The position numbers were made by a program, and so were the translations under genes. Positions 508 through 25,342 of a stretch of DNA of 64,000 nucleotides are shown here, piece by piece (position 1 is the first letter of the stretch; each line of letters begins with the position of its first letter). The DNA lies in contig OZ024756.1 in NCBI GenBank assembly GCA_964016885.1, forward strand, positions 15,004,001 to 15,068,000. Direction: 5' to 3'. The notes beneath the pieces are model-generated. The model was not told where the DNA came from, made no database searches, and was given only the letters and a program-made list of their open reading frames with translations. The DNA is from Eledone cirrhosa. Lineage: Eukaryota.

Positions 508-670
508 ATATAGAAATGGCTTCTACAGGACTAGAACTGCTTCATTCGCAGGAAATCATCAGGAAAGCCGAAACAGTTCTAGTCCTGTAGAAGCCATTTC
601 TATATTAAATACTTGTACTCTGTTATGTATTGAGTACCTTACTGTGGTTACCCCCGATTGAATCCGGGAT
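508..670. mobile_element. Family B HHR-bearing element with fold-back (arms 508-539 and 574-605)
   Basis: Minus strand: GGCTTTC-CTGATGA-TTTC ctgc GAAT-GAAG-CAG ttctagtc CTG-TA-GAAGCC. Tail gtattgagtaccttactgtggttacc is shared with the 11661 and 25209 copies. Confidence 0.65.
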
Positions 671-680
671 ACACACACAC

Positions 681-736
<56 letters not shown>

Positions 737-742
<6 letters not shown>

Positions 743-1055
743 AGAGGGTCGGATGCCAGGCTTTTCAGCATAGAGTTATGGTCCTTTACGGTCTGAGTTC
801 AAATTCCGCCGAGATTAACTTTGCCTTTCATCCTTACGGGGTCGATGAAATAAAGTACCAGTAATGCACTGGGATAACTGCTGGCCTTGTGCCAAAAGTA
901 GAAACAATTATTACTATTTCAATAAGGGCCGAGATTAACTTTGCCTTTCATCCTTACAGGGTCGATAAAATAAAGCACCAGTAACACACTGGGGTCGATT
1001 TAATCGACTTTCTCCTCTCCCAAATTGCTGGCCTTGTGTCTACAGTAGAAATCAT
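737..1055 (+). mobile_element. Two partial copies of the dominant tRNA-headed SINE
   Basis: B box GAGTTCAAATTC, core GCCTTTCATCCTTACGGGGTCGATAAAATAAAGTACCAG, tail GGCCTTGTGCC..AGTAGAAACAATT. Confidence 0.85.
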
Positions 1056-1229
1056 TTGTAACTCATTGTTATTGTGATTCTATATTATTGTTGTTGTTGT
1101 TGTTATTTTCATCTTTCAAATTTGAAATCACTGAAGCGTGAAATCATGTGGCAGTTGCAAGTATTTTACTTTCATTTTTCTGGTGGTTTTGCTGTTGTTT
1201 TTTTCTTGTAATATTTGACTAAGTTTACG

Positions 1230-1620
1230 ATTTGTTGTTGTTGTTGTTGTTGTTGTGGTGTGTATGGTGGTGTGTATGGTGGTGTGTATGGTGGTGGTGG
1301 TGGTGAAAGAGAAATAGTGGTGGTGGTGGTAGTGGTAGTGGTGGTGTGTATGGTGGTGGTGGTGGTGGTGGTGGTGATGAAAGAGAAATAGTGGTTGTGG
1401 CGGTGTGTATGGTGGTGTGTATGGTGGTGGTGGTGGTAGAAGTGTGGAAAGTAATGGCGGTCGTTGTGCGTTCTTCGTAGTTGTTATTGAAGGTGGGTGG
1501 TGGTGGTTTTAGTGGTGTGGTTGGTGGTTTAATGGAGGGTCATAGTTCTTATTGGTGATGATGGTGGTGATGGTTTTGACGGTAGTGATGCTAGTCTGGT
1601 TGTGGTTGGGGTTGTTATTT
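1230..1620. repeat. (GTT)n/(GGT)n low-complexity tract
   Basis: Visible trinucleotide repeats. Confidence 0.85.
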
Positions 1621-1962
1621 TTCAGCTCCATTTAATTTTATAAATGGAGATCGTCAAACTTAAAACGATCTGACGTTAATCCCGTTAGCTTCGGATTAAA
1701 CGTGACTTGGCGCCGTGTTTTGGCAACTGGAAAACGCGCGTGTGTATGTATGTGTGTATATGTGTTGCATAATTAACTGTTTACAATATATACATTCATA
1801 CATGGATACACATATTCACACACTTGCCTATAAATACTCGTTTACTATCACACACACACGCACACGCACACACACACACGCACACACACGCACACACACA
1901 CACACTCCCACTAGGATTTTTGCAAAAATACGAATATACTGTCATATACTACCTCGTCCTCC

Positions 1963-2056
1963 ATATATGTATGTATGTATGTATGTATATATAATATATA
2001 TATGTATGTATGTATACATGTATATATATATATATGTATGTATGTATGTATACATG

Positions 2057-2115
<59 letters not shown>

Positions 2116-2124
2116 ATATATATG

Positions 2125-2221
<97 letters not shown>

Positions 2222-2272
2222 GTATAGATATATATATGTATATATATATATATATGTATAGATATATATATG

Positions 2273-2305
<33 letters not shown>

Positions 2306-2316
2306 GTATAGATATA

Positions 2317-2370
<54 letters not shown>

Positions 2371-2388
2371 TGTGTGTGCATATATATG

Positions 2389-2437
<49 letters not shown>

Positions 2438-2532
2438 GTATAGATATATATATGTATAGATATATATATGTATAGATATATGTATATATATATATATATA
2501 TATGTATACATATATATGTATATATATATGAG

Positions 2533-2567
<35 letters not shown>

Positions 2568-2666
2568 TTATGTATATATGTATATATATATATAAATGTA
2601 TATATATATATATGTATATATATATATGTATATATATATATGTATATATATGTATATATATATATG

Positions 2667-2716
<50 letters not shown>

Positions 2717-3019
2717 TGTATGTATATATATATATATGTATATGTATGTATATATATGTATATATATGTATGTATATATATATATATATATGTATGTATA
2801 TATATGTATATATATATGTATGTATATGTATATATGCATATATACATGTATATGTATGTATATATATATATGTATATGTGTATATGTATGTATATATATG
2901 TATATGTATATATGTATATATATATGTATATATATGTATATATATATATACAAATATATATATATGTATATGTATCTATATATATATATATATATACATA
3001 CATATACATGTATATGTAT

Positions 3020-3063
<44 letters not shown>

Positions 3064-3209
3064 GAGTATGTGTATGTGTATGTATACACCCCTAAAAATC
3101 CATATATTGTCATACACAGGCATCCAACCGCAATCATCTCGCTCCAACACTTCTAATGTATAATCAATTCCTTGGCCCACTTCTCAATTCATACACTTGC
3201 ACACACACA

Positions 3210-3257
<48 letters not shown>

Positions 3258-3261
3258 CACT

Positions 3262-3295
<34 letters not shown>

Positions 3296-3522
3296 GTATG
3301 GGTGGTGCTGACCTTACAGATGACCGAACAGTTTCAAAGTGTTACCACAACCTCATCAGAGTTCAAATATGATTACATCAATAGTGCATGTATATATATA
3401 TATATATATATATATAGTTATGTAATAAACACACACATATATATACACACATACACACACATATATATACACACACACACACATATATATACACACACAC
3501 ACACATATATATACACACATAC

Positions 3523-3553
<31 letters not shown>

Positions 3554-3712
3554 CACACACACACATATATATACACACACACACACACACACATATATAT
3601 ACACACACACACACATACATATATACACACACACACACACACACATATATATACACACACACATATATATATACACACACACATATATATATACACACAC
3701 ACATATATATAT

Positions 3713-3745
<33 letters not shown>

Positions 3746-3746
3746 T

Positions 3747-3842
<96 letters not shown>

Positions 3843-3850
3843 GTATATAA
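1963..3850. repeat. (TA)n/(TG)n/(CA)n compound microsatellites
   Basis: Direct inspection. These give the spurious YI/CV/HT ORFs. Similar tracts lie at 8375-8930, 22855-23640, 29190-30470, 34250-34850, 36625-39435, 41455-41935, 45110-46435 and 47590-48410. Confidence 0.95.
3320..3383 (+). CDS. Possible small exon (MTEQFQSVTTTSSEFKYDYIN), frame and donor unresolved
   Basis: Unique island between microsatellites, preceded by ctgaccttacag (branch-like CTGAC plus CAG). Confidence 0.22.
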
Positions 3851-4004
3851 TATATTAAGTCTTATTGAACTTCGCTTTTCTTGGTTGTTTGATTGGAAAT
3901 ATCTAATATATCTACTTGATATTCATTTGCGTGTGACTGAAACCAGTAAAAAAATAAATGGATATATATAGGTTATATCATGTGAGTTCTTAGGGGTGTG
4001 GTTG

Positions 4005-6035
4005 TTATACTATGGTATGGGAGAATGTCCAGACGACAGACGTTACGTGGTCTACTACAGATGGAACAATGTCCAGACGATTGACGTTACGTGGTCTACT
4101 ATGGTATGGAACAATGTCCAGACCACAGACGTTACGTGGTCTACTACAGATGGAGCACTGTCCAGACACAGACGTCACGTCTACTACAGATGGAACACTG
4201 TCCAGACGACAGACGTTACGTGGTCTACACCAGATGGAACAATGTCCAGACCACAGACGTTACGTCTACTACATTATGGAACACTGTCCAGACGACATAC
4301 GTTACGTCCACTACAGATGGAACAATGTCCAGACGACAGACGTTACGTGGTCTACTACAGATGGAACAATGTCCAGACCACAGACGTTACGTGATCTACT
4401 ACAGATGGAACAATGTCCAGACCACCGACGTTACTTGGTCTACTACAGATGGAACAATACCCAGACCACAGACGTTACGTCTACTACAGATGGAACAATG
4501 TCCAGACGACAGACGTTACGTCTACTACAGTATGGAACACTGTCCAGACCACAGACGTTTCGTCTACTACAGCTGGAACAATGTCCAGACGACAGACGTT
4601 ACTTCTACACCAGATGGAACACTGTCCAGACCACAGACGTCACGTCTACTACAGATGGAACAATGTCCAACCACAGACGTTACGTCTACTACAGATGGAA
4701 CAATGTCCAGACCACAGACGTTACGTGATCTACTACAGATGGAACAATGTCCAGACCACCGACGTTACTTGGTCTACTATGGTATGGAACAATGTCCAGA
4801 CCACCGACGTTATTTGGTCTACTACAGATGGAACAATGTCCAGACCACCGACGTTACTTGGTCTACTATGGTATGGAACAATGTCCAGACCACCGACGTT
4901 ACTTGGTCTACTACAGATGGAACAATGTCCAGACCACCGACGTTATTTGGTCTACTACAGATGGAACAATGTCCAGACCACCGACGTTACTTGGTCTACT
5001 ACAGATGGAACAATGTCCAGACCACCGACGTTATTTGGTCTACTACAGATGGAACAATGTCCAGACCACCGACGTTACTTGGTCTACTACAGATGGAACA
5101 ATGTCCAGACCACCGACGTTATTTGGTCTACTACAGATGGAACAATGTCCAGACCACCGACGTTATTTGGTCTACTACAGATGGAACAATGTCCAGACCA
5201 CCGACGTTATTTGGTCTACTACAGATGGAACAATGTCTAGACCACCGACGTTATTTGGTCTACTACAGATGGAACAATGTCCAGACCACCGACGTTATTT
5301 GGTCTACTACAGATGGAACAATGTCTAGACCACCGACGTTACTTGGTCTACTACAGATGGAACAATGTCCAGACCACCGACGTTATTTGGTCTACTACAG
5401 ATGGAACAATGTCCAGACCACCGACGTTACTTGGTCTACTACAGATGGAACAATGTCCAGACCACCGACGTTATTTGGTCTACTACAGATGGAACAATGT
5501 CCAGACCACCGACGTTATTTGGTCTACTACAGATGGAACAATGTCCAGACCACCGACGTTACTTGGTCTACTACAGATGGAACAATGTCCAGACCACCGA
5601 CGTTATTTGGTCTACTACAGATGGAACAATGTCCAGACCACCGACGTTATTTGGTCTACTACAGATGGAACAATGTCTAGACCACCGACGTTACTTGGTC
5701 TACTACAGATGGAACAATGTCCAGACCACCGACGTTACTTGGTCTACTATGGTATGGAACAATGTCCAGACCACCGACGTTACTTGGTCTACTACAGATG
5801 GAACAATGTCTAGACCACCGACGTTACTTGGTCTACTACAGATGGAACAATGTCCAGACCACCGACGTTACTTGGTCTACTATGGTATGGAACAATGTCC
5901 AGACCACCGACGTTACTTGGTCTACTATGGTATGGAACAATGTCCAGACCACCGACGTTACTTGGTCTACTATGGTATGGAACAATGTCCAGACCACCGA
6001 CGTTACTTGGTCTACTATGGTATGAAACAATGTCC
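4005..6035. repeat. 44/45-bp minisatellite, about 45 copies
   Basis: Unit TACTACAGATGGAACAATGTCCAGACCACCGACGTTACTTGGTC, with a 45-bp variant TATGGTATGGAAC and shorter 41-bp variants at the left end. Confidence 0.95.
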
Positions 6036-6074
6036 CAAATATTTCAGCAAGATATGCGTGAAGAAGTATTGCAA
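5993..6074 (+). CDS. Candidate penultimate exon of the same gene (PPTLLGLLWYETMSQIFQQDMREEVLQ), 5' boundary uncertain
   Basis: Unique sequence at the end of the 44-bp array. CAA|gtagaa phase-0 donor is in frame with the exon at 8162. The acceptor would lie in the last repeat unit (tccag). Confidence 0.35.
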
Positions 6075-6152
6075 GTAGAAAAGAAATGTTGTTGTTTTTG
6101 TTGTTGATTTGTTCGTTTGTTGTTGAGCTGCGGGGAAGAAAAGTATTATAAT

Positions 6153-8122
6153 AGTTGTTTCTACTTTAGGCACAAGGCCAGCAATTACCCAGTGCATTAC
6201 TGGTACTTTATTTTATCGACCCCGTAAGGTTGAAAGGCAAAGTCAACCTCGGCGGGATTTGAACTCAGATCGTAAAGGGACGTAACTATGCTGGAAAGCA
6301 TGGCGTCCGACCCTCTACCGATAATTGTTTCTACTTTAGGCACAAGGCCAGCAAATACCCAGTGCATTACTGGTACTTTTATTTTATCGACCCCGTAAGG
6401 ATGAAAGGCAAAGTCAACCTCGGCGGGATTTGAACTCAGATCGTAAAGGGGCGTAACTATGCTGGAAAGCATGGCGTCCGACCCTCTACCGATAATAGTG
6501 AGCAGAAATATGTGTGAAGGTTTGAAAACATCAGAGCAACAATGCTGCTTTCTAATTCAGTGACAACACCAGCGACTTGTGGGACGGGAGTGGGGTGTGG
6601 TGCTTTATTTTATCGACTACAGGGGTTGAAAGACAAAGCTGACCTCAGCGAGATTTGCACTCAAAACTTAATGAGTCGAATCAAATACCACAAAGCATTT
6701 TATGGGTTGTTCAAACAATTCTCCTAATCCAGCGTCTAACAGGAAAATATGGCAGTTTCTAATTTAAGCAGAAAGCCAATAAATTGGGGAGCGAGAACAG
6801 TCAATTAAATCGACACCACGTCGTCTTGACCGGTTCCATCTCTATATACATTTCTGCGATTCTGTCACAGCACGTAAAGAGAGGGGAGTAGTTTGACTAC
6901 CTCATACTACTCCTCTCTCTCTTTACGTCTGCTGCTTGTATGTATGTGTGAATGTATGTGTGTGTAAAAGGGGGAAAGGGGATGGGGGGGGGGGGGGATA
7001 AACTACGCTGTGTATAGTGTGTGTGTGTGTGTGTGTATGTGTGCGGGTGTTTGCGTGAATGTATGTCTGTGAGCGTGTATTTTTGTAAGTGTGTCTGCGT
7101 GTTTATATTTATATACTCATACATATAAATGTATGCATTTTCACATACACACACGCATATACACACACGTACACACATATACACACACGTACTCACATAT
7201 ACACATACGCGTCAGCATATGGAAAAAACATTCTAGTATTTTATAAACTTCCAGGAAGATAGTTGACCTCGGTAAAATATTTTGTCAATATAATAATAAT
7301 AATTGTTTCTACTTTGGCACAAGGCCAGCAAATTATCCAGTGCATTACTGGTACCTTATTTTATCGACCCCGTAAGGATGAAAGCAAAGTTAACCTCGGC
7401 GGGATTTGAACTCAGATCGTAAAGGGACGTAACTATGCTGGAAAGCATGGCGTCCGACCCTCTACCGATACTGCCAATCCATGGTTTCTGATTTAGGCAT
7501 AAGGGCAACAATTCCAGGGGGGGGGGGGCAAGTCACCCAAATTGACCCCAGTGCATTACTGGTACTTTATTTTATCAACCCCCGTAAGGATGAAAGGCAA
7601 AGTTAACCTCCGCGGGATTTGAACTCAGATCGTAAAGGGACGTAACTCTATGCTGCAAAGCATGGCGTCTGACCCTCTACCGATACTGCCGATCCACCGT
7701 CCATCAACTGACACTAATAATTGTTTCTACTTTTGTCACAAGGACAGCAATTACTCCAGTGTATTACTGGTACTTTACTTTATTGGCCCCGTAAGGATGA
7801 AAGGCAAAGTTAACCTCGGCGAGATTTGAACTCAGAATGGCAAGGGCCGTAACTCTTTGCTGCAAAGCATGGCGTCCGACCCTCTACCGATACTGCCAAT
7901 CCACTAATCCACCCTGACACTAATAATAATAATTGTTTCTACTTTTGGCACAAGGCCAGCAAATAACCCAGTGCATTACTGGTACTTTATTTTATCGACC
8001 TCGTAAAGATATAAAGGCAAAGTTAACCTCGGCGGGATTTGAACTCAGATCATACAGTGAGGTAACTCTATGCTTCAAAGCATGGCGTCCGACCCTCTAC
8101 CGATACTGCCAATCCACCGCCT
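6153..8122 (-). mobile_element. Cluster of six tRNA-headed SINE copies (6153-6323, 6324-6495, 7302-7480, 7485-7700, 7720-7905, 7932-8122)
   Basis: Repeated TTGTTTCTACTTT.GGCACAAGGCCAGC...GGATTTGAACTCAG...CCCTCTACCGATACTGCCAATCC. An older diverged copy lies near 6600-6740. Confidence 0.9.
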
Positions 8123-8161
8123 GACACTAATAATAATAATTTGTTTTTGTTGTTATTGTAG

Positions 8162-8347
8162 GAGCTGAAGCGGGCAGTGATGAAGCTAGAAGGTGAAGAT
8201 TTACACCATTTTCACCCAATGACAATGAACTGGCTATCGTTGGATGGCCAAGAAATACTGCCTACCACCGACGAAAACCATGGAAACATGTCGTCTGCTA
8301 AAGTTATCTGCTTACAATATCATATAAAGGAATCTTCAACTGTTTAA
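8162..8347 (+). CDS. Probable terminal exon of an unidentified host gene (ELKRAVMKLEGEDL...IKESSTV*)
   Basis: T-rich tract then ttgtag|GAG. 61 non-repetitive codons to TAA. The C-terminal S-T-V fits a class I PDZ-binding motif. Confidence 0.5.
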   Translation, partial: ELKRAVMKLEGEDLHHFHPMTMNWLSLDGQEILPTTDENHGNMSSAKVICLQYHIKESSTV

Positions 8348-8758
8348 CAACATTTCATATATCGTTCTATACACGAACGCACACACACACACACATATAT
8401 ACATATACACACACACACATATATATATACACACACACACACATACATATATACATATACACACACATACATATATATTTACACACACATACATATATAT
8501 ATACACACACATATATATATATATATATACATATACACACACATACATATATATTTACACACACACACATATATACATATACACACACATATATACATAT
8601 ACACACACATACATATATATATATACTCACACACACATATATATATATACATACACACACATATATATACATATACACACACACACATATATATACATAT
8701 ACACACACATACATATATATATACACACACACACACACACATATATATACACACACAC

Positions 8759-8799
<41 letters not shown>

Positions 8800-9015
8800 T
8801 ATATACACACACATACATATATACATATACACACATACATATATATATACACACACACATATATATATACACACATACATATATATATACACACATACAT
8901 ATATATATACACACATACACACATATATATAGCTCGTATGTATACACATCTTTTATATTTAAGAATGTATTTTAGCAATATATATTCATAATCATTGGTT
9001 CAACCCCCCTCCTCC

Positions 9016-9740
9016 CCTTGAAATCTAAACTCCCACATCTCTCACTCCCACTCTCCCACATCTCTCTCTATCACTCCCATTCTCCCACATCTCTCTGTAT
9101 CGCTCCCACTCTCTCACACCTCTCTATCACTCCCACTCTCTCACACCTCTCTATCGCTCCCACTCTCTCACACCTCTCTATCGCTCCCACTCTCTCACCT
9201 CTCTATCACTCCCACACCTCTCTCTCTATCACTCCCACTCTCCCACATCTCTCTATCGCTCCACATTCTCCCACATCTCTCTCTATCACTCCCACTCTCC
9301 CACATCTCTCGCTCCCACATCTCTCTATCACTCCCACTCTCCCACTCTAACGCCCCACATTCTCCCACATCTGTCTATCACTCCCACCTCTCTATCGCTC
9401 CCAGATCTCTCTCTATCACTCCCACTCTCTCACACCTCTCTATCGCTCCCACATCTCTCTATCACTCCCACACCTCTCTATCACTCCCACACCTCTCTAC
9501 CGCTCCCACTCTCCCAATCACTCCCACCTCTTTCTATCGCTCCCACAGCTCTCTCTATCACTCCCACATCTCTCGCTCCCACTCTCCCACTCCCACATCT
9601 CTCTCTATCACTCCCTCTCTCCCACATCTCTCTCTATCACTCCAACTCTCTCACATCTCTCTCTCTCTCCCACTCTGTCTATCGCTCCCACTCCCTCTCT
9701 CTACCTACCTATCTCAATCTCTCTCGCTCGTTCTTTCACT
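9016..9740. repeat. Pyrimidine-rich degenerate minisatellite (ctctctatcactcccacat)
   Basis: Direct inspection. Confidence 0.85.
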
Positions 9741-10214
9741 CACCCTTTCACTCTCTGCCCTTATCTGGAAGAAATCGGCAGCGTTCAGACAGGGAAAGTG
9801 ATGGGCTCGACCAGATTGAAAGATGCCCAAGTCACGTCTTACGCCACAGCGGCGCCTCAGTGAAGAGGTACAGGTTCATACGATCCGTCAAATAGATATA
9901 ATCGTCATAAACTACGTGATTTACAATGTTGAAGTGGAAGAGAGAGGTTCTACTAAAATATATACCGACAAATAAAGAAATATCCCACGTCCTGTGCCTT
10001 GCATCTCTCTCAGCTGTAGTTGAATTGTGTCGTCACTGACCAGGTCGCAAAGGTGTGACGAAACTTTTGCACAACTTCATAATAGACTGTACGATTAAGA
10101 AATAAACGAAAAGTGACGTATAACAGTTGTTGTTTTGTTATTGAGGTTGTTTTTATTGTTTTGTTTTTTAATGGTAAAAATTACTTTTCTTTCAGTTTGA
10201 AAAAGTCATTTATA

Positions 10215-10524
10215 CAGTCGAACCTCGGTTTACGAACGCCTCTTATCACGAACAAATTTTCCGAAAATAAAACGTCACTGTTCTTTTACAATGTCTCAAG
10301 TAACAAATACACAAGCCAGCAACAATAGTTGGTGACAAGCTTTATTCGTCGGTGGGAAAGTGTCACAGTGTAGTTAGTTACCGTGGTGAGATCTGTCTTT
10401 CACACACACAGTCTCTCTCTCGCATTGTATTTCTCTCTCAACAGTTCGTATGGGAATATAGTTTCAGTTCGGGTGACGAATGGCCTTCAGAAATGAATTA
10501 AGTTCGTGAGCCAAGGTTCCACTG
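10215..10524. mobile_element. Tc1/mariner (pogo/Tigger-like) MITE
   Basis: Terminal inverted repeats (TIRs) CAGTCGAACCTCGGTTTACGAAC and GTTCGTGAGCCAAGGTTCCACTG, with TA on the left. Confidence 0.7.
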
Positions 10525-10536
10525 TGTGTGTGTGTG

Positions 10537-10711: not shown

Positions 10712-10915
10712 GGCGGTGGATTGGCAGTATCGGTAGAGGGTCGGATGCCATGCTTTGAAGCATAGAGTTACCTCCCTGTATGATCTGAGTTCAAATCCCG
10801 CCGAGGTTAACTTTGCCTTTCATCCTTACGGGGATCGATAAAATAAAGTACCAGTAATGCACTGGGGTAATTGCTGGCCTTGTGCCTAACGTAGAAACAA
10901 TTATTATTATTATCA
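10712..10915 (+). mobile_element. Full-length tRNA-derived SINE (reference copy); inverted copy at 11006-11190
   Basis: Starts GGCGGTGGATTGGCAGTATCGG (A box), has B box GAGTTCAAATCC, the conserved core and an (ATT)n tail, and sits in an (ATT)n tract. More copies: 12250-12330, 15830-16095, 16209-16382, 26735-26930, 30601-31362, 33940-34012, 43483-43560. Confidence 0.92.
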
Positions 10916-11281
10916 CTATTTGTACAAATATACAACATAACAATATTCTGCATATCCGCAATTGACAATACATATAATGGTGAAACCGATATTGTAAATA
11001 CATTAATTGTTTCTACTTTAGGCACAAGGCCAGCAATTACCCAGTTCATTACTGGTACTTTATTTTATCGACCCCGTAAGGATGAAAGTCAAAGTCAATC
11101 TCAGCAGGATTTGAACTCAGATCGTAAAGGGACGTAACTATGCTGGAAAGCATGGCGTCCGACCCTCTACCGATACTGCCAATCCACCGTCCTGTTTGAT
11201 ATTGTAAATACATTAATGCTTTGACATTTCACTGAAAAAAATCGCTTCAACATTTTCTACTGAAAAAATCTTTCCTTTCTA

Positions 11282-11419: not shown

Positions 11420-11650
11420 TATTTTCCCAATTTGTAGAAAACTTATAATGAAACAATTGTTTGGAAAGGAGGATGTATTTTAATTATGTCTCATATAAAA
11501 TAATACAACTGGCTATCCGCAAAATACGTATAGTTAGCACCCCAAACGTAAAATTGGGATTATACTAAGGTATATCCTAATGTTTGTTGAGGGAGAGGGA
11601 AACCGGTCGGAGTATTTGCTTAAAGATTTCTCTGTTAATGTATTAAATAT
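11420..11650 (+). repeat. (TA)n-embedded dispersed repeat, second copy at 23878-24105
   Basis: Two ~230-bp similar copies. Both contain GAAA-CAATTG-TT, which resembles an HHR 3' half. Confidence 0.75.
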
Positions 11651-11717
11651 ATATATATATATAGATGAGATTCTACAGGACTAGAACTATTTCATTCTTT
11701 AGAAATCATCAGGAATC

Positions 11718-11772
11718 TGGGATTCCTGATGATTTCTAAAGAATGAAACAGTTCTAGTCCTGTAGAATCTCA
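11718..11772 (+). ncRNA. Type I hammerhead ribozyme, family B, within hairpin 11661-11777
   Basis: Stem I TGGGATTC/GAATCTCA, CTGATGA at 11726, stem II TTC-taaa-GAA, GAAA at 11745, stem III CAG/CTG, GTA triplet ending at 11764. Confidence 0.72.
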
Positions 11773-11852
11773 TCTATATTAAAACTTTTATACTCTGCAA
11801 TGTATTGAGTACCTTACTTACTGTGGTTACCTCCGATTCAACCCGGAATAAC

Positions 11853-11901
<49 letters not shown>

Positions 11902-12630: not shown

Positions 12631-12707
<77 letters not shown>

Positions 12708-12779
12708 CAAAGGGATATTAAAACTTGAACCGTTAAGGTCTCATTCCTGGATATGTCACTATTTATAAAACAAACTTTG

Positions 12780-12840
12780 TATTTTATCTGATGAGAGCGT
12801 ACCAAAGTTTTAGTACCCTTGAAATATATATAATAAAATA
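12780..12840 (+). ncRNA. Minimal type I hammerhead ribozyme, family A
   Basis: Perfect stem I TATTTTAT/ATAAAATA, CTGATGA at 12788, stem II GAGCGTAC/GTACCCTT, GAAA at 12821, palindromic TATATA, predicted cleavage after 12832. Confidence 0.78.
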
Positions 12841-12884
12841 AATATGGTTTTATAAAGATAGTTTCCATTTATTTAATATCATTG

Positions 12885-12915
<31 letters not shown>

Positions 12916-15225: not shown

Positions 15226-16496
15226 AAATAAGAAGAAGAAAGAAAAAAAGAAGAAAAGAAAAAGAAAGAAAGAAAGAAAAAGAAGAAAAAAAGAAAAAGA
15301 AAAAAGGAGAAAAAGAAAAAAAGAAAGAAGAAGCTAAAGTTTAGTAACGACCAAATACAACTTTAAATTGTCATTTAAAAAACAGTTAAAGCTTTGGGAA
15401 GACCAAATCAATTTATGAACAGGAAATATAAAAGAAACAGCAAAATTATATTTTGGAAATTTTACACAAAGATTTCATGATTTTACAATTGAAAAGATAT
15501 GACTGGAGTGTTTATGTACAAATAAATGGTTTTCGAATGAATACAATGGCATATATAGTTCAGTTAAGTTCAGACTTATAGATTATACATCGTGCAAACG
15601 AGCTAGAACAAAAGACGTGCAGACTTCAGAGTCTTATAATAAAATTTAAAAATAATAATATTATTCTCGTGGTAAAATAAGCAAACCATGTTAAATTATG
15701 TGTGAATAATTGACATTAGAACATTGAGACAATACAGTAAATATGCTAGCTATGATAAAGTTGATAATACTTGTGTGTTTTTAAATAGCTAAGAGGGCTC
15801 TTCCACGCAGTAATTGTCTTAGTACAAATAATTGTTTCTACTATTGGCACAAGGCCAGCAATTACCCAGTACATTACTGGTACTTTATTTTATCGACCCC
15901 GTAAGGATTAAAGGCATGGCACAAACCAACAATTATCCCAGTGCATTACTGGTAATTTGTTTTATCGACCCCGTAAGGATGAAAGGCAAAGTTAACCTCG
16001 GCAGGATTTGAACTCAGACCGTAAAGGTCCGTAACTCTATGCTGCAAAGCATGTTGTCCGACGCTCTACCGATATTGCGATACTGCCAATCCATCACCCT
16101 ACAAATAATTATTTCTACTTTTGGCACAAGGCCATCACCCTACAAATAATACAAATTAAACTAACAATACTACACATAGCTCCCACATTATCACTATTAT
16201 AATGATAAGTATCGGTAGAGGGTCGGACGCCATGCTTTCCAGCATAGTTACGTCCCTTTACGATCTGATTTCAAATCCCGCCGAGGTTGACTTTGCCTTT
16301 CATCCTTACGGGGTCGATAAAATAAAGTACCAGTAATGCACTGGGTAATTGCTGGCCTTGTGCCTAAAATAGAAACAATTATAATGATATATGTCGTGGT
16401 GATAATGGCGGTGGATAATGTGAGAGAACGCTCTCCAGCGTATGACACTTCGTAGTCCCAGTAGACAGACAGAATAGAGAAAATATTACCCCTGAC

Positions 16497-16858
16497 CAGC
16501 GGTCACCAACATTTCGGACTACTGAATTCATAATTTTAAATCCCACGGACCACTAATATAAATTTTTTTAAAAAGATCAATACATTTGTAAAATAATGAT
16601 CAGAGAACTTCTATTTTATTAAACAATACTGAAGTGTACGTGTGTCATATTGTCGATAGATGATACATATGTGTAAAATTCTTTCATGGATGTTAGTTCT
16701 TTACTGAGGAGAAACATTTTTAGGGATGTTATAAAATTTATTTTAACCGAATATTATTTTTGTTTTATTATTAATAAAACATAAAAATTACAAATAATGT
16801 CCAAATTTTTCTGCAGATAACCAACATTTTCTCTCGGACTACCGGTTGGTGACCGCTG
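16497..16858. mobile_element. hAT-type MITE
   Basis: Perfect 14-bp TIRs CAGCGGTCACCAAC/GTTGGTGACCGCTG. The 8-bp flanks CCCCTGAC and CCCATGAT match at 6 of 8. Confidence 0.8.
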
Positions 16859-17899
16859 CCCATGATGGTAGCGAGGAAGACGTGTTGAAATAGTCATTCC
16901 ATCATGTGTAGTTCACTCCTGCGGGTGGCCAACTCCATCTCTATAGCAGCGAGTAAAAAGGTAATTTGGGGACCAAGAACACACGAAGTTTCCACCGCTA
17001 TAGTTTCAACGACAAAACTATAGGATATCTTGTGACAAACCTTTCAGCTTGTCGGGCAAAAAACACATGAGTAGGAGATTAAACTACGACATTAGAAAAA
17101 AAATTTCTTATGGCTTACCTTCTGCGTGCAGAACAAATAGTTAAGTGGTGGTTGACATAATGTAATGGACCCCCCTCCAAAAAAAAATGATCATTAAACT
17201 GAATTGAAATTATATCGGTAATGAGGACGAAAGCAGAGCGAAAATGTGAGTGGGAGAAGATGGGGAGAGGAGAGGGGTAGGAAAAATGTCCGTGAAAAAC
17301 GTGTCTCTGTGTATGTGTGAGAGAGAGACGGTGGTTTGTGTGCGTGAGAGAGAAAGAGAGAACGTTTCTCTCTTTTTTTTTCTCTATTTATCTCTCTCTC
17401 TCTCCCTCCCTCCCCATGTCTTTCTCTCTATCTATCTATCTATCTATCTATCCATCTCTCCTTTTCTCTGTATATATATATATATATATGTGTGTGTGTT
17501 TATGTAAAAATGATAAGTGAATACGTTGCATGGCGGATATAAAAACTCTTCGTAAATCCCAAACCAGTCCAACATCCGGTAGATATAAAAACCATGGAAT
17601 AAAACATTGTATGTAGCCCTTATTTCCAGGAACATTTTTAATGAAATTTTCCGGTGAGGGAAGACGTGTTGGTTTCTTTTTTAAATATCAAATAGCTTTA
17701 GGTTGTGTCGTCTGCTCATTAAAATACGTCTAACGACAATTGGGACGACATTGTTAATACTTGTAGTAGCAAACTGTGAAATGTTTGGGGAAACAATGAG
17801 TGTAATTAGAACCTCAGACGTTATGGGAACTGAGATGGATGATGGGATTGAGTGGGTCCTTCTAAACCTTTTATTTTACTAATATTATGTTTAGAGGAA

Positions 17900-18650
17900 T
17901 CAAGAAATTGTGGGAGTATTGTCAAGAGGTTTATTCTTGTTTTGTAGACCTCGAAAAGGCATATAACTTGCTGTGGAAGGTTCTGCTGGAATATGAGATC
18001 GATAATCAGCTCCTTGCTGCTCTGATATCTCGATACGAATGCCTGAGTTTTGTGTTCGGATAAATGATTCTAAATCGAAACCATTCAATGTTGTAGTCGG
18101 ACTCTGCCAAGCGTGCATTCTGTCACCTCTTCTGTTCATTATTTACATAAACAGATTGACATGCACAACCGGGTTGGAGATAGTATCAAGACTGTTGAGT
18201 ATAAAATTAGTCGGCTGGAATTTGCAGACGAGATGGTGTTACTTAACTCGGAAGGAGGTGATCTCCGACTTCCACTGGATAGGTTTGATGCCAAGTGCTG
18301 CATGGTTGGAATGAAAATCAGTGCTGCGAAAACTGAGACACTTGTCCTCTCAAAGAGGCCTGCCCAGTGCACACTACATGTGAATAGAGTTCCACTGAGG
18401 AAGGTAGAGAAGTTCAAGTACCTCGGGGCCGTGTTCACGAGTGATGGAAGGCAGGAAGTTGAATTAAGTGCAAGAATTGCAGGAGCTGGTGCAGTAATGT
18501 GCCAGCTTCCGGATTCGGTAATCAGAAGAAGGGAGGTAGGTGTAAAAGCCAAACTCGATTTCTTCAATTCAGCATTTGTGCCAACCCTTACCTATGGTCA
18601 TGAATCTTGGGTAATGACTAAAAGAATACAATCGCCAATACAAACGTTGG
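17900..18650 (+). mobile_element. RTE-clade LINE reverse transcriptase fragment (frameshifted)
   Basis: FVDLEKAY, GLCQACILSPLLF, LEFADEMVLL (YADD equivalent), EKFKYLG, PTLTYGHESW. Confidence 0.88.
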
Positions 18651-18788
18651 CTACATATATGTATCTGTGACTATGTCTAAATATATATATGTCCTTATGA
18701 CTTTCTTCTATATTCCCTAACGGTTGAGTAAACCTTAGACGGTAACTAATTGCTTTTTCTACCAATGAACTTACTTGCCACCGGCCTT

Positions 18789-19030
18789 CCCTTCACAACA
18801 TTTCTATCTTGACCGCTAGCCACGTGATGTTTTCCACCCCTTTTGAATTCGTTACTGACGGCAATCAATTTGGAAATGTTGGTCCTAACTAAGGGAATCT
18901 CCCTAACCCTAACCCTAACCCTTCACAACATTTCTATCTTGACCGCTAGCCACGTGATGTTTTCCACCCCTTTTGAATTCGTTACTGACGGCAATCAATT
19001 TGGAAATTTTGGTCCTAACTGAGGGAATCT
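18789..19030. repeat. 112-bp tandem duplication with (CCCTAA)3 at the junction
   Basis: Copies at 18789-18900 and 18919-19030 differ at 2 positions. Telomeric repeats occupy 18901-18918. Confidence 0.9.
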
Positions 19031-19354
19031 CTTGAAAAGCTCGGAGCCTTATGGATAATACGACGATTAGACATTTCTACAAAGTACGAGCGAAACTATC
19101 GATAGTAGGGATTGGGAGAATTTTTGGTAACCTTTATCTATTTTCTTCTTCAAACTTACATTTTAGACTTAGCTCCGTTTAATTGAGTATTTTTCTAGTT
19201 AATTTCTACAGACTTAGAGGAAAGACTAGGTAAACTTTATCTGACTCTACCTCATAAAGGAATATTGGTAACATTTATCTGTTATTTCTTCAAAGTTACA
19301 TTTTAAACTTAGCTCCGTTTAAATGATTATTTATCTGGTTGATTTCTCCGGACT

Positions 19355-19563
19355 AAGAAGAACAAAGTGGATAAAACTATACGAACACGCCAGACAAAAA
19401 CATGACGTTAATACAGACAACATAGAAATTAAAATAATATCGAAGCATAGAAATGACTCAACAGGTAGGCAAATCGCAACTGAGATAGAACTAAGAAAAC
19501 CGAAGTTGAACAGAAAACACGAATGGAATAACAACAACAACCATACCCAAACAAAGGGAAATA

Positions 19564-19594
<31 letters not shown>

Positions 19595-20020
19595 ATACAG
19601 AAGTACAATAACAACAAAGACACATAAACACACATTAGTGAACAAAGATAGAATACAAAAACACATACACTCAAAAAGAGGAAACTCACACGCAAACGCA
19701 TGCACAAACAGAGACAGAGACAAGGATAAATACATTAATTAATTAAATAAAGATGGCGTAGGCATTACAATACAACGGGAGGAAACATAATAGTACCACT
19801 GATGATGTCACAGATGTGTGACGAAAGAACTTTGATAGACTATATATATATTTATATCTGTATTTTTAACTGTTGGGTAATCAATGATAAACATTGATCG
19901 CCAGATAAATTAACTATGGAGATATAAAAGATACAGAAGCGAAAACCAACCAAACAGTGAGTGTGTTCTGTTATTATTTCTGGCAATATTATAACAATAT
20001 GACCCTCCTCATATATAACA
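19355..20020 (+). mobile_element. Penelope-like element 3' end: GIY-YIG C-terminus plus HHR-containing pseudo-LTR (pLTR)
   Basis: LYEHARQKH..IKIISKH...RQIA.EI..KPKLNRKHEW fits the Penelope endonuclease C-terminal pattern. CTGATGA-T-GTCACA gatg TGTGAC-GAAA lies at 19799-19826. Confidence 0.7.
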
Positions 20021-20028
20021 ATATATAT

Positions 20029-20076
<48 letters not shown>

Positions 20077-20214
20077 AGTGTTACGGGAAGTTACTGTAGG
20101 TTCACCCGGGTGAGCACTCGATGTTTAGGTTCACGTCAGTAGCGAAGTCTAGAGCTAGACAGAGTGTAATATAATAATACAAGGACAATTTGTTAAGCCT
20201 TCATTACATTTAAT

Positions 20215-20336
20215 GATTGGTGACGCGCGTTTCGCTATTGATCAGCTCAAGGTTCGATCTATATCCATCTGGCCCGACTCTAGAATCAAAAGCTCGTAGG
20301 ACCTCTGTTGTAGTAATGACAGAATTTGTCATTACT

Positions 20337-20342
<6 letters not shown>
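20215..20342 (-). ncRNA. Degenerate HHR with terminal hairpin
   Basis: Minus strand: CT-ACGA-GCTTTTGAT...ATCAATAGC-GAAA-CGCGCG-TC. A perfect hairpin TGTTGTAGTAATGACA/TGTCATTACTACAACA lies at 20307-20342. Confidence 0.45.
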
Positions 20343-20395
<53 letters not shown>

Positions 20396-20432
20396 TTTAT
20401 AAACAACAACCAAAGACTGTTTAAAACATTTA

Positions 20433-20480
20433 ATCGCTTACGATCGTTTCATCCTAACACAAGGTCGTGTCATCGGAGTA
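20433..20480 (-). ncRNA. HHR-like motif with CCGATGA core
   Basis: Minus strand: ACT-CCGATGA-...-GAAA-CGATCG-TA-AGC. Confidence 0.45.
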
Positions 20481-20689
20481 TATAATAAAGGTTGAGCAAA
20501 TATATCAGAAGTTTGTCATAAGAACATTAAGAGGATACATAATATGGGAAGTAAGCATAAGTATCGACATTCATATAAGAAAAGATAGTAAAGGTGGTAG
20601 AAGAAACATGAAAAATATGAGCATATAAATGCAATAAAATAAAATTAGGAGCAGCTAAAAGCATTAAAAACTTTGAATTAAATTAAATT

Positions 20690-21560
20690 TATTATATAGG
20701 AATGAGATTTTTTCCACTTTTTAAACCTAGTAACTAACTTATACCAATGTAGAGTTATACCTTATTTTTTTTTAAACATTAGTATTGCATTTTTATAGCA
20801 TCCCCATTCTGATCCCTTCAATTTTTATTATAATTTATTATAACCACCCGTTCACATTTAGGCATCGTATTATTTTATTATATTATTATATTATTTTATT
20901 ATATTATTTTTAATAAGCCCCACTTTTATTTGAATTTATTTTTGCTAATATTATACTATATATTAACCATTACCTCACTCTCTATTTTTTCAGTAGTATA
21001 TCTTCAATAGGTATATAATTTATTAATATTTAATTAACTAGTATAATTTTTTATCCTTTGATATTATTTAACATCTGTATATAATTTTTTTAATAATACA
21101 TAGCATTTTAGTATACACTGATAAATTATTTTATTTGTATTTTGTAAATATATTATTTTTAAAATAATTTTTAACAGTTCTTTAGTTCTATAATCATTGG
21201 CCCTAAATAAGTTTTTTAAGTAATTACATCTTGACTTACTAAAAAAATAATTTTCAACAGTTCTTTAGTTCTATAATCATTGGCCCTAAATAAGTTTTTT
21301 AAGTAATTACATCTTGACTTACTAAATACTTATTTTTCCCTTTAATAATTTGAAACTCTCTTATAAAAGATATTTATGAATTACCTCCCTTTTATTCTTA
21401 ATTTTGTATCAACTGTCAGCTAACGATAAATTTTCAAAGTCTATATTAAGATGGAGTTATTTATGCATATAAGACTTTCTTCCCTCTATTCATTCTATAG
21501 GCTTGTTTGTGTCTGGCTGGTTCGTCTTCAGATTTGATGTAATTTTTGTTGTTTTAACAC
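20690..21560 (-). mobile_element. Possible highly decayed Penelope-like ORF; contains an 84-bp tandem duplication (21160-21325)
   Basis: A-rich minus strand with LYIGIS/TRFKKWKKSH (GIY-YIG-like) upstream of the HHR-like motif at 20433. The support is weak. Confidence 0.28.
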
Positions 21561-21693
21561 TGGTCTGACGATCAGGCAGACTTGGAGTCTGGTCAGGGAT
21601 GATCCCAGATCAAGAGCCGGCTGCCTGGGAAACATTTGTAACCGGGTTGAGCAATAAATCTCATATGTAACACTTCCACTTTGTTATTATATA

Positions 21694-21726
<33 letters not shown>

Positions 21727-21728
<2 letters not shown>

Positions 21729-22108
21729 AAGGCGGGTAAAATTCCCGAGATCCATGGACGAGTTCTCTCCAGCGGTCTCTGTCCCTCATTATCGCTGCCA
21801 TGTCCTGCGTCTCCAACAGACCAGTGTCTGTCCTTAGGGCATCAACATACGTTAACCTTGGTCTTCCTCTTCTAGTGTGTCCATGTAGGGGCTCCCACAG
21901 GAGCACTGAGTGCAATGTCAACTCTGGATGTCGGTGAGCATGTCCAGCTAACCTCAGTCTCCTCTGTAGTGGAGTCTGTGCTGCTGTATGGGTCTGAGAC
22001 TTGGACACTGACCAAGAAACTCACTCAGATGGTGGATGGGTGCTACACGAGAATGCTGAGGATGGCTCTGAACATTAATCAGTATACACTGAGGATGAAA
22101 ACTCAGAG

Positions 22109-22110
<2 letters not shown>
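21727..22110 (-). mobile_element. RTE-type LINE 3' fragment with inverted 5' segment
   Basis: Minus 21727-21966 encodes RRLRLAGHAHRH..LLWEP..GRPRLTYVD. Plus 21963-22105 encodes SVVESVLLYGSETWTLTK..GCYTRMLR. Both flanks are (TA)n. Confidence 0.85.
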
Positions 22111-22142
<32 letters not shown>

Positions 22143-22146
<4 letters not shown>

Positions 22147-22280
22147 TTAATTAATTAATTATACTATTTATGGTTATGTAAATACAAAAACCTTTTGCAG
22201 TTATATATATTTTTTTATACAAACCCTAAATAGTGGTAGGCAGTAATATATTACTACCTTATTACCAGTAAGTTAAGTAA
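22143..22280. repeat. (TA)n-embedded dispersed repeat, second copy at 33805-33925
   Basis: Shared ATACTATTTA.GGTTATGTA...AAACCCTAAA.AGTG...ATTACTACCTTATTACCAGTAAG. Confidence 0.7.
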
Positions 22281-22298
22281 TATATATATATATATATA

Positions 22299-22590
22299 TT
22301 GTTATACTTGGGGAGGGTCATATTGTTGTAATAATATTGCCAGAAATAATAACAGAACACATTCACTGTTTGGTTGGTTTTCGCTTCTGTATCTTTTATA
22401 TCTCCACAGTTAATTCATCCGATCCTCAATGTTTATCATTGACTGACCAACGGTCAAAAATACAGATATAATATAGATATAAACACATATATATAGTCTA
22501 ACAAAGTTTTTTCGTTGCACATCTGCAACATAATCAGTGGTACTATTATGTTCCTCCTGTTGTATTGTATGTCTACGCCATCTTTATTTT
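22299..22590 (-). mobile_element. Solo copy of the pLTR seen at 19745-20020, opposite orientation
   Basis: Alignable over ~280 bp. HHR-like CTGATTA-T-GTTGCA gatg TGCAAC-GAAA at 22537-22510. The terminal motif ATGACCCTCCC.AAGTATAACAA also occurs at 40315 and 46305. Confidence 0.78.
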
Positions 22591-22852
22591 ATCGGTTTAT
22601 TTACATATATATGTGTGTGTGTGCGTGCATGTGTGTGTGTGTAATTGTTAGGATGTAATTGTTCATTAGAATATTAGAACAATGGTTAATAGAGACGAGG
22701 AGGAGGAAGAAGAAGAAGAAAATAAGTCAACATTTGTTTTATATTAGAATAAATGCATTGATTATTGTGTAATGTGTGAAGCAGGTAAAGTGTTTCACAG
22801 GTGAACTGTCTACCGAATACAAAGCTACTGGGGGCTGGTATATGTGTGGAGG

Positions 22853-22944
<92 letters not shown>

Positions 22945-23285
22945 CTGTGAATGTGTGTGTGTATGTGTGTGTGTGTGTGTGTCTGTGTATGTGTGTGTGT
23001 GTATGTGTATGTGTGTGTATGTGTGTATGTCTGTGAGTGTGTGTGTGTGTATATATGTGTGTGTGTGTATGTGTGTGTGTGTGTATGTGTATGTGTGTCT
23101 AAGTGTGTGTGTATATGTCTGTGTGTGTGTGCGTGTGTGTGTGTGTGTATTTATGTCTGTTTCTCTAAGAGTATGTATCTAAGTCCATGTGTGTGTATGT
23201 CTATGACTGTATGTGTACGAGTGTGTGTGTGTGTGTGTGTGTTTATGTGTGTATGTCTGTGAGTGTGTGCGTATGTGTGTGTGTA

Positions 23286-23328
<43 letters not shown>

Positions 23329-23347
23329 GTCTAAGTGTGTGTGTATA

Positions 23348-23378
<31 letters not shown>

Positions 23379-23790
23379 TTATGTCTGTTTCTCTAAGAGT
23401 ATGCATCTAAGTCCATGTGTGTGTATGTCTATGTCTGTATGTGTACGAGTGTGTGTATGTGTGTGTGTGTGTGTGTGTATGTCTGTATCTAAGTGTATGT
23501 ATGTTTGTGTCTAAGTATTCAGCCAGAAAGTGTACGTGTGTGTGTCTGTGTGCTGTCTATGCATGTACGTTTGTATATGTCTGTGTGTGTATGTGTGCGT
23601 ATGTGTGTGCCTCTGTATCTAAGTGTATGTATGTATGTGCCCAAGTATTCAACCAGAATGTGTCTATTCTCCTCAAAACTAATCTTTTAGTTGTTGTCAG
23701 TTTAATAGAATAATTAAACATCATTCTTCTTTTAGGAAGCCATCTTGTCTCATAACATATTCAGTTGAAATTGGCTTGGAAAGAAAAGTA

Positions 23791-23882
<92 letters not shown>

Positions 23883-24125
23883 CCCAACTTGTAGAAAACT
23901 TATAATGAAACAATTGTTTGGAAAGGGAGATATATTTTAATTATGTCTCTTATAAAATAATACTACTGGCTATCCGCAAAATACATATAGTTAGCACCCC
24001 AAACGTAAAATTGGGATTATACTAAGGTATATCGTAATGTTTGTTGAGTGAGATGGAAGCCAGTCAGAGTATAGCTTAAAGCTTTCTCTGTTAATGTATT
24101 GAATATATATATATATATATATATA

Positions 24126-25190
24126 TAAGAGACGTAAAATAAGAAAATTATAAAATTAACTTACTTACTAAAATATCACTTCCAACTAATTAGTTTATGG
24201 AATGGAGTAAATATATTTTCCGAAGAATAATATCGAGAAGCATTCCGTCGTCAGGAAAGTCTATTCTCATGTAAGTTTCTAGGCAAAGCGAGGACACTGG
24301 AAACTTATTAAAAAATAATTCAGTGGATAGGAAATAGCGAAGCGTGGACTGAATTCCAAGCCATTGAGAAAATCACTGCCTCTACGTCTGTGGCAAATTC
24401 AAAAAGAATCGAACACGTGACATCGAGGTCAATCAGTGGAAAGTGGTTTGCTAATAAGACAGCGGCCTGCCTACAACCGTAGCAGCAGTCATGGCCAATA
24501 TTGCTCGACAAATAATTTGGAGATAATAATAAAGAATTCATATCTAGTAACATATATATACATACAGATGCATATCAATGCTAGCAAATATATAGGTTTT
24601 GTCTTAATAACAGTGTGGTTCAATGCATGGGGTTGCAGAACAATAATATAAGAGACGTAAAATAAGAAAATTATAAAATTAACTTACTTACTAAAATATC
24701 ACTTCCAACTAATTAGTGTAGGCAGGCCGCTGTCTTATTAGCAAACCACTTTCCACTGATTGACCTCGATGTCACGTGTTCGATTCTTTTTGAATTTGCC
24801 ACAGACGTAGAGGCAGTGATTTTCTCAATGGCTTGGAATTCAGTCCACGCTTCGCTATTTCCTATCCACTGAATTATTTTTTAATAAGTTTCCAGTGTCC
24901 TCGCTTTGCCTAGAAACTTACATGAGAATAGACTTTCCTGACGACGGAATGCTTCTCGATATTATTCTTCGGAAAATATATTTACTCCATTCCATAAACT
25001 AATTAGTTGGAAGTGATATTTTAGTAAGTAAGTTAATTTTATAATTTTCTTATTTTACGTCTCTTATATTATTGTTCTGCAACCCCATGCATTGAACCAC
25101 ACTGTTATTAAGACAAAACCTATATATTTGCTAGCATTGATATGCATCCGTATGTATATATATGTTACTAGATATGAATTCTTTATTATA
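24126..25190. repeat. Complex inverted duplication A-x-B-a-A'-B' in (TA)n, carrying a degenerate HHR
   Basis: 24127-24475 is the reverse complement of 24717-25065, and 24527-24716 is the reverse complement of 24998-25188. CTGACGA at 24938 is followed by CGGAATG..CATTCCA-TAAA-CTAATTAG. Confidence 0.88.
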
Positions 25191-25208
25191 TATATATATA
25201 TATATATA

Positions 25209-25342
25209 CGTAGGTCCCGGGTTGAGTCGGGGATAACCACAGTAAGTAAGGTACTCAATACATGGCAGAGTAAAATTTTTTTATTCCTGAAGATTTCATC
25301 TGAATGAAACAGTACTAGTCCTGTAGAAGCTCCTTCTATAAA
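25209..25342. mobile_element. Family B element, rearranged (inverted tail then forward HHR)
   Basis: TTC-CTGAAGA(25287)-TTTC atct GAAT-GAAA-CAG tactagtc CTG-TA-GAA, preceded by the reverse-complement tail. Confidence 0.68.

Follow-up and report, generated by a model that had tools for sequence, protein, structure and literature searches.

The papers cited here describe a characteristic genomic footprint of endonuclease-containing Penelope-like elements (PLEs): an inverted, 5'-truncated copy adjoining the 5' end of the element, a one-sided tail of 30-40 nt, hammerhead ribozymes (HHRs) in the pseudo-long terminal repeats (pLTRs), and a bias towards microsatellites (PMC8557442). In Pen2a and Pen3a of Adineta vaga, head-to-head inverted pLTRs with a tail and with palindromes at the junctions were interpreted in 2013 as products of self-priming on an antisense template (PMC3846280). 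Minimal PLE hammerheads occur as opposite-strand pairs about 100-700 bp apart, mostly in truncated relics (PMC4209133). The formation of the tandem and inverted structures of PLEs has been named as an open question (PMC8557442), and the later steps of their retrotransposition have been called unvalidated (PMC11167929). Here we describe a short repeat, termed family B, that combines a HHR with a tail in a 64,000-nt stretch of the genome of Eledone cirrhosa (contig OZ024756.1 of assembly GCA_964016885.1, positions 15,004,001 to 15,068,000; hereafter the window). Judged by their layout, the family B copies are very probably hammerhead-bearing PLE-type insertions; that they are PLE-type and were also built by twin priming is, as a joint statement, a reading that we favour with more reserve.

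A BLAST comparison within the window yielded three homologous copies, at 509-672 (164 bp), 11660-11853 (194 bp) and 25210-25340 (131 bp), which share the HHR and the tail as the initial annotation had proposed. A fourth, diverged member has a tail, and no HHR arm was seen next to it. The parts of these copies are as follows.

509..569, minus strand: copy 1, inverted arm with a whole type I HHR; core box 562-556; stem II loop CTGC
570..604, plus strand: copy 1, direct arm of 35 nt, beginning at the GAAA box and without the 5' half of the HHR
605..672, plus strand: copy 1, tail of 68 nt, predicted to form two small hairpins; (AC)n and (TA)n come after it
11660..11717, minus strand: copy 2, inverted arm of 58 nt with a whole HHR; helix III carries one C-to-T change
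11718..11778, plus strand: copy 2, direct arm of 61 nt; in its intact type I HHR the 5' strand of stem I is 11718-11725, the core 11726-11732, stem II (with closing U.U) 11733-11744 and GAAA 11745-11748; helix III with a palindromic loop, predicted cleavage after 11764
11779..11853, plus strand: copy 2, tail of 75 nt, followed by (TA)n
25210..25283, minus strand: copy 3, tail of 74 nt, joined head-to-head to the arm
25284..25340, HHR sense on the plus strand: copy 3, inverted arm of 57 nt; core 25287-25293; loop ATCT; the junction leaves 3 bp of stem I
43565..43645, plus strand: fourth member, represented by a tail only, with 68-79% identity to the others and adjoining another repeat

The order of the parts is identical in all three full copies: the inverted HHR arm is followed by the direct arm, and the tail of 68-75 nt stands last. 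In copy 1 the direct arm pairs with 509-543, and the inverted arm has GAAG in place of GAAA and a bulged stem I of 6 bp, its 5' limit lying 7 nt before the core. The loop of the copy 2 hairpin consists of the first three nucleotides of the direct arm, to which, from the pairing of stem I, it probably belongs. Copy 3 has neither a direct arm nor a hairpin, so that the palindrome claimed for every copy is confined to copies 1 and 2. Its single arm and its tail lie in opposite orientations, and the tail starts within about 1 nt of the arm/tail boundary of the other two copies; copy 3 is thus a clean inversion at this boundary, with nothing duplicated or lost. We also considered copy 3 as an unrearranged linear element and rejected this option: an inverted segment would then have had to insert at one and the same base in copy 1 and in copy 2, and the copy 3 junction leaves stem I with 3 bp.

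The initial annotation held that the inversion points differ between copies. This is true of the inner junction, the direct arm measuring 35, 61 and 0 nt in copies 1, 2 and 3, respectively, and untrue of the outer end of the inverted arm, which in all three copies is the same base, namely the one preceding the tail in the direct arm. The tail ends of the three copies agree within a few bases, and the 5' limits of the four arms that reach the start of the ribozyme lie close together, 3-8 nt upstream of the core, suggesting either that the template is short or that copying meets a strong stop. In two of the three copies the inverted arm includes sequence for which the direct arm has no counterpart (26 nt in copy 1 and 57 nt in copy 3), and this is the new element of our observations. 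The layout itself is already known as the inverted pLTR with a tail of PLEs, and palindromes formed during retrotransposition have been published for these elements since 2013; the finding is mostly a rediscovery in a new host (PMC3846280, PMC8557442).

The assignment to PLEs draws on several features of this layout. An inverted 5'-truncated copy stands head-to-head at the 5' end in 3/3 full copies, each of which also has a one-sided extension, at 68-75 nt longer than the 30-40 nt described for PLE tails. A type I hammerhead motif is recognized by a sequence descriptor in both arms of copy 2 and in copy 3, and all six family B ends lie within 13 nt of a (TA)4+ run. No coding open reading frame (ORF) is present in the ORF list of the copies, and the combination of telomerase-like reverse transcriptase (RT) and GIY-YIG endonuclease in one ORF, which defines autonomous endonuclease-bearing PLEs, is absent from them; nor did the window yield an autonomous partner. 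The copies are therefore solo or non-autonomous pieces, and from their layout we infer that a PLE enzyme served them. Two scans for stray copies in prokaryotic genomes gave no matches, as expected.

The two hairpins are each far more self-consistent than the family is. Within copies, 34/35 positions pair in copy 1 and 57/58 in copy 2, whereas between copies identity amounts to 30-32 of 35-36 columns in the stretch that they share and to 47-49 of 57-58 when the entire HHR is compared. Arms thus match their partner better than any other copy, as the initial annotation had stated. Both hairpins fold much more stably than shuffled sequences (z -11.2 and -20.2, with none of 200 shuffles equal). The arm comparisons support the conclusion that each palindrome was copied from its own template and was not inherited from a single family-wide palindrome. 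The further claim, that the palindrome is made anew at every insertion, is sustained at the sequence level only as remaking since the lineages split; remaking at each insertion would be an extrapolation.

The single mismatch of each hairpin sits in the inverted arm, at 540 and 11689. These are adjacent positions at the base of helix III and each change preserves a wobble pair, an agreement that with two cases may be due to chance. A-to-I editing as the source of the mismatches was dropped, one change being A-to-G and the other C-to-T.

The layout could be explained by twin priming, the standing model for 5' inversions of L1 (PMC2912911). In vitro, a PLE protein from Anolis cleaves and extends both target strands. 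Reverse transcription begins at two internal sites, one of which lies in a stem-loop, and these sites mark the limits of the tail. The RNA that it uses is uncleaved, and a dimeric form is predicted for the protein (PMC11167929). The family B copies would likely be mobilized by a PLE RT-endonuclease acting on a template RNA in which the HHR precedes the tail and which would be copied uncleaved. Both nicked strands of a (TA)n target would each prime one complementary DNA (cDNA). The first cDNA would start at the end of the tail, beside a small stem-loop, and the second at the arm/tail boundary; there the element terminates in TATA and could pair with the target. Each cDNA would end at a point of its own, reaching no further than the 5' strand of stem I (3-8 nt ahead of the core), and the two would then be joined head-to-head. 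The length of the hairpin would be the overlap of the two cDNAs: 58 bp in copy 2, 35 bp in copy 1 and none in copy 3. We consider it likely that the copies were built by twin priming, and two start sites such as those seen in vitro for the lizard PLE would explain all three.

Fold-back priming, one of the two mechanisms suggested in the initial annotation, does not survive as the only route. A cDNA begun at the end of the tail duplicates, on folding back, only what it has already copied, so fold-back alone cannot give copies 1 and 3, and fold-back from the inverted arm is rejected as the sole route because it could not produce the tail. An amended version, in which a PLE cDNA or antisense template folded at the 5' limit and primed itself, so that full hairpins such as copy 2 arose, and copies 1 and 3 later lost some or all of the direct arm by one-sided deletion at the centre of the palindrome, seems to us unlikely, although it is the strongest competitor. 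Long palindromes are unstable. The inverted arms of all three copies reach nearly the same 5' limit, and both copy 2 and a family C copy described below (38958-39068) are near-perfect palindromes with minimal centres. Self-priming has already been proposed for head-to-head PLE palindromes (PMC3846280). On the other hand, two later deletions are required, both in the direct arm and one of them ending within about 1 nt of the arm/tail boundary, and the arms of copy 1 are as similar to each other as those of copy 2, so that copy 1 is not visibly older.

Several observations weigh against twin priming or against the PLE assignment. The 3-nt centres of copy 2 and of the perfect family C copy fit fold-back equally well. 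An overlap of 58 nt is not expected from classical twin priming with one RNA as template, and two RNAs or strand displacement have to be assumed for it. There are three full copies only, with templates about 15% apart, and in a further family C insertion (38646-38819) the arms are alike at 34/39 positions as compared with 32 of 38-39 to another copy, a weak margin. The flanks of the family B copies share (TA)n words only, among which a target-site duplication is unreadable, and no microhomology could be assigned at their junctions. Neither a GIY-YIG endonuclease nor a PLE protein was found in the 10 of 176 ORFs or segments that were scanned. The tails exceed the published length, and the ribozyme departs from the minimal PLE consensus: the G10.1-C11.1 pair and long helix II are lacking in all four arms containing stem II, a U.U pair and a helix II of 3 bp standing in their place, and helix III is long.

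According to a second alternative, the hairpin was fixed in the source element of each subfamily and copied whole, its arms being homogenized by quasi-palindrome repair and the junction differences being deletions. Copies about 15% apart may indeed derive from different source elements, and with just two hairpins and templates so distant, remaking per insertion and remaking per lineage are inseparable. We nevertheless regard this scenario as quite improbable. The arms did diverge, by one mismatch per family B hairpin and by five differences in one family C hairpin, which argues against continuous homogenization, and there exist a solo arm of family A (12788) and a family C copy without a long inverted arm (62790-62935).

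The copies could also be monomer insertions of a tandem non-LTR (long terminal repeat) retrozyme, reverse-transcribed from RNA in circular or multimeric form, in which case the inversion would be a by-product. They share with retrozymes the absence of coding sequence, the type I HHR and the U.U pair, which lies at the base of helix II in the axolotl retrozyme HHR_Amex2 (PMC7229834). Monomer derivatives are common, and retrozymes have been proposed to be PLE derivatives (bioRxiv 10.64898/2026.07.22.740005); as regards the enzyme, this alternative is compatible with PLE-driven twin priming. We find it very improbable. Retrozymes are built of 150-450-bp units in tandem, every one of which carries a type I HHR, and no tandem unit is present at any of the four family B copies. 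The 5' limits cluster near the core, whereas the copying of a circle would have continued past it, and the ends do not coincide with the predicted cleavage site, which in copy 2 lies 14 nt inside the arm.

Two last possibilities are hardly credible: a DNA miniature inverted-repeat transposable element (MITE) with a TA target duplication, suggested by TA repeats at both ends, is contradicted by termini that are not inverted repeats (2/20, 6/20 and 5/20 matches, in keeping with the initial annotation), a palindrome at one end that is absent in one copy, unequal sizes and junctions, and the HHR core, and a fold-back artefact of sequencing or assembly, conceivable in that PLE inversions are noted as hard to assemble (PMC8557442), does not agree with the arm mismatches, the common outer-end base in three diverged copies and a tail outside the palindrome each time.

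The ribozyme assignment rests on a conserved core with varying loops, and self-cleavage is a prediction from it. A minimal type I HHR descriptor finds six cores in the window (two in the arms of copy 2, one in copy 3 and the remaining three in other families), compared with a mean of 0.02 and a maximum of 1 in 100 shuffles. Copy 1 lacks an intact core, its sole complete HHR having the altered GAAG box and being missed by the descriptor. Stem II was correctly described as TTC/GAA in each of the four arms that contain it, forming a helix II of 3 bp closed by U.U under a variable tetraloop (CTGC, TAAA in both copy 2 arms, and ATCT). The covariation claimed for stem I was not demonstrated. Its pairing ranges from 8 bp in copy 2 through the bulged stem of copy 1 to the truncated one of copy 3, and covariation in an alignment of the four arms is not above shuffles (161/500 as high). 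The hammerhead fold is the minimum-energy fold in none of the four arms.

Helix III has 4 bp and an 8-nt loop with a palindromic centre, which in all four arms is predicted to allow dimerization. The predicted self-duplex is worth -12.8 to -15.2 kcal/mol in three arms and -9.0 in the fourth, as compared with 0 to -1.7 kcal/mol for helix III as a monomer hairpin (about -1.5 in the three arms and 0 in the arm with the -9.0 self-duplex). We predict that the HHR works as a dimer through the palindromic loop III. In the transcript of a hairpin copy it would be sequestered, and the present copies are probably dead relics.

No Rfam family reached its gathering score anywhere in the window. In scans of single arms the best HHR match was to Hammerhead_3 (16.3 bits, E 0.21, cut-off 48.5), copy 3 giving none, and the E-value scans were dominated by microRNA models matching microsatellites and hairpins. 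This negative result says little, because Rfam also misses a textbook-looking HHR at 41212 on the minus strand. The latter belongs to a further family (41165-41220, minus strand) and looks like a type I hammerhead with a 7-bp stem I and a short palindromic helix III.

The structure of the tails is less clear, and the tail hairpins are to be taken as leads only. Taken one at a time, the tails show no more stable folding than shuffled sequences (z -0.04 to -1.8), and two-sided changes affect one of nine pairs in the four family B tails. In an alignment of eight tails covariation is not significant and the second helix is placed out of register. Similarity between the tails of families A and B is mostly not above shuffles (p 0.04-0.7), and that between families B and C is weak (p 0.003-0.065, uncorrected). 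The tails of B and C have an 11-mer in common, all six matches of which in the window fall in these six tails; six matches are not above the shuffled count (10/100 shuffles). A small inverted motif at the start of the tail occurs nine times in the window, always in the four B tails and the A tail, and in 0/100 shuffles, with a pattern that was derived from these same tails.

Families A and C repeat the layout of family B, and the asymmetry of the arms runs both ways. Together, the three families provide six insertions whose 12 ends, picked by the analyst and not blind, all lie within 15 nt of a (TA)4+ run, as do 9-18% of window positions. The members are as follows.

12788 (region 12700-12890): family A, solo arm without tail or partner
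38646-38819, plus strand: family C, direct arm longer than the inverted arm
38880-39069, minus strand: family C, perfect palindrome (38958-39068) with a minimal centre
40490-40921: family A, arms of 160 bp that mismatch at 2 positions; tail of about 90 nt; minimal hammerheads
62790-62935: family C, tail-bearing copy without a long inverted arm

Family C holds only the 3' half of the hammerhead, that is the GAAA box, helix III with its palindromic loop and the cleavage triplet, and its tail is related to that of family B. Its 5' limits are clustered in 3/3 copies, two of which face each other across a single (TA)n run. The 23-nt centre of the family A hairpin at 40490-40921 contains a short direct repeat, as end-joining can leave. 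Solo and degenerate relatives of family A are found at 12700-12890, 250-440 and 40050-40265.

In octopod genomes more generally, there may be several ultra-short (130-430 bp) hammerhead-plus-tail families moved by PLE proteins, in which the inverted repeat results from obligatory twin priming from two fixed starts, with the overlap varying continuously down to a clean inversion. We offer this generalization tentatively and at somewhat less than even confidence. A literature search, with most subscription papers outside its reach and Repbase and Dfam not included, found no paper that applies twin priming to PLE inversions or describes octopod hammerhead families.

Adjoining copy 3, the segment 24123-25189 is a very young complex insertion of three head-to-head pieces that are 99-100% identical. 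Read on the minus strand from 24720 to 24123, it corresponds to 24995-25189, a 50-nt spacer and 24717-25069, and thereby covers more than a full unit of what looks like a 523-nt repeat. Similarity to the beginning of the family A tail is seen in the spacer (p 0.003), and a degenerate hammerhead-like core is located at 24938. No remnant of a PLE protein was found in the repeat 24717-24880 in either of the two frames tried (Pfam, Atlas and homologue searches). A 231-bp repeat ending in (TA)n, with 93% identity between its copies at 11420-11650 and 23877-24106, directly precedes copy 2 and the insertion at 24123, and the microsatellites of one repeat family thus serve others as targets. Further local palindromes, about 77-92% self-complementary, are situated at 10714-11189, 33401-33586, 43983-44280, 60851-60936, 61614-61940, 20306-20342 and 27936-27982; two of them are made of copies of an abundant short repeat.

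The window as a whole is AT-rich and contains many microsatellites, tandem repeats and fragments of retroelements. Domain matches among the scanned segments comprise two RT fragments, one DDE transposase and a weak C2 match. The RT and transposase segments listed here are unlinked to family B.

18074-18670, plus strand: RT fragment
34927-36867, minus strand: RT ORF of the long interspersed nuclear element (LINE) type (RVT_1, E 5.6e-30)
49991-50422, plus strand: DDE_3 transposase fragment

An exon of a KIF28P-like kinesin is present at 61144-61458 on the minus strand and matches Octopus bimaculoides (73%), Argonauta hians (79%) and Octopus vulgaris (67%), the three matches among 33 candidates compared, which points to an octopod cephalopod as the likely host. 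The abundant short repeat of about 180 bp, found at 736-1055 and about 25 other places, is dispersed and also forms tandem clusters (42129-43218); by appearance it resembles a short interspersed nuclear element (SINE). Minisatellite arrays occupy 32261-33049, 52853-54533, 57655-58389 and 59012-60857, with periods near 56, 96, 96 and 28 or 56 nt, respectively, and a further array at about 4000-6100 is seen only as repetitive ORFs.

Fold-back and two-primer models can be told apart by copies in which the inverted arm contains sequence that the direct arm lacks. Short families make the counting of overlaps easy, as the whole unit fits in one read, and a genome-wide census of overlaps would decide between twin priming and the published self-priming for PLE inversions. 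The annotation of repeats could also be corrected, since automated tools see such hairpins as MITEs or microRNA precursors.

The closest described systems compare with family B as follows. With Pen2a and Pen3a of A. vaga (PMC3846280; general scheme in PMC8557442) family B shares the head-to-head inverted truncated copy, the tail on one arm, the junction palindrome and the microsatellite target; it differs in having no ORF, inserts of 130-195 bp, a longer tail and one copy with zero overlap, and the explanation given there is self-priming. The Anolis Poseidon element PAc (PMC11167929) likewise has a HHR upstream of two fixed 3' ends that bound the tail, a stem-loop near the distal end, an AT-rich target and a HHR kept uncleaved in the copy. 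In PAc the HHR and the tail overlap the start of the ORF, whereas no open frame is seen in family B.

The minimal PLE hammerheads (PMC4209133) resemble those of family B in their type I topology, palindromic loop 3, predicted dimerization and close opposite-strand pairs. In family B, helix II has 3 bp plus U.U, helix III has 4 bp and a loop of 8 nt, and 13 nt separate the two cores of copy 2. Metazoan non-LTR retrozymes (PMC7229834; bioRxiv 10.64898/2026.07.22.740005) are similar in being non-coding, in the type I HHR with a U.U like that of HHR_Amex2 and in their proposed dependence on PLEs, and family B differs from them in forming dispersed single inserts with an inversion and without tandem repeats. 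Finally, the 5' inversion of L1 (PMC2912911) joins an inverted upstream segment head-to-head with a direct 3' segment, which is the form of copy 3; in family B the second priming site is fixed, overlaps reach 58 nt, and there is neither a poly(A) nor a readable target duplication.

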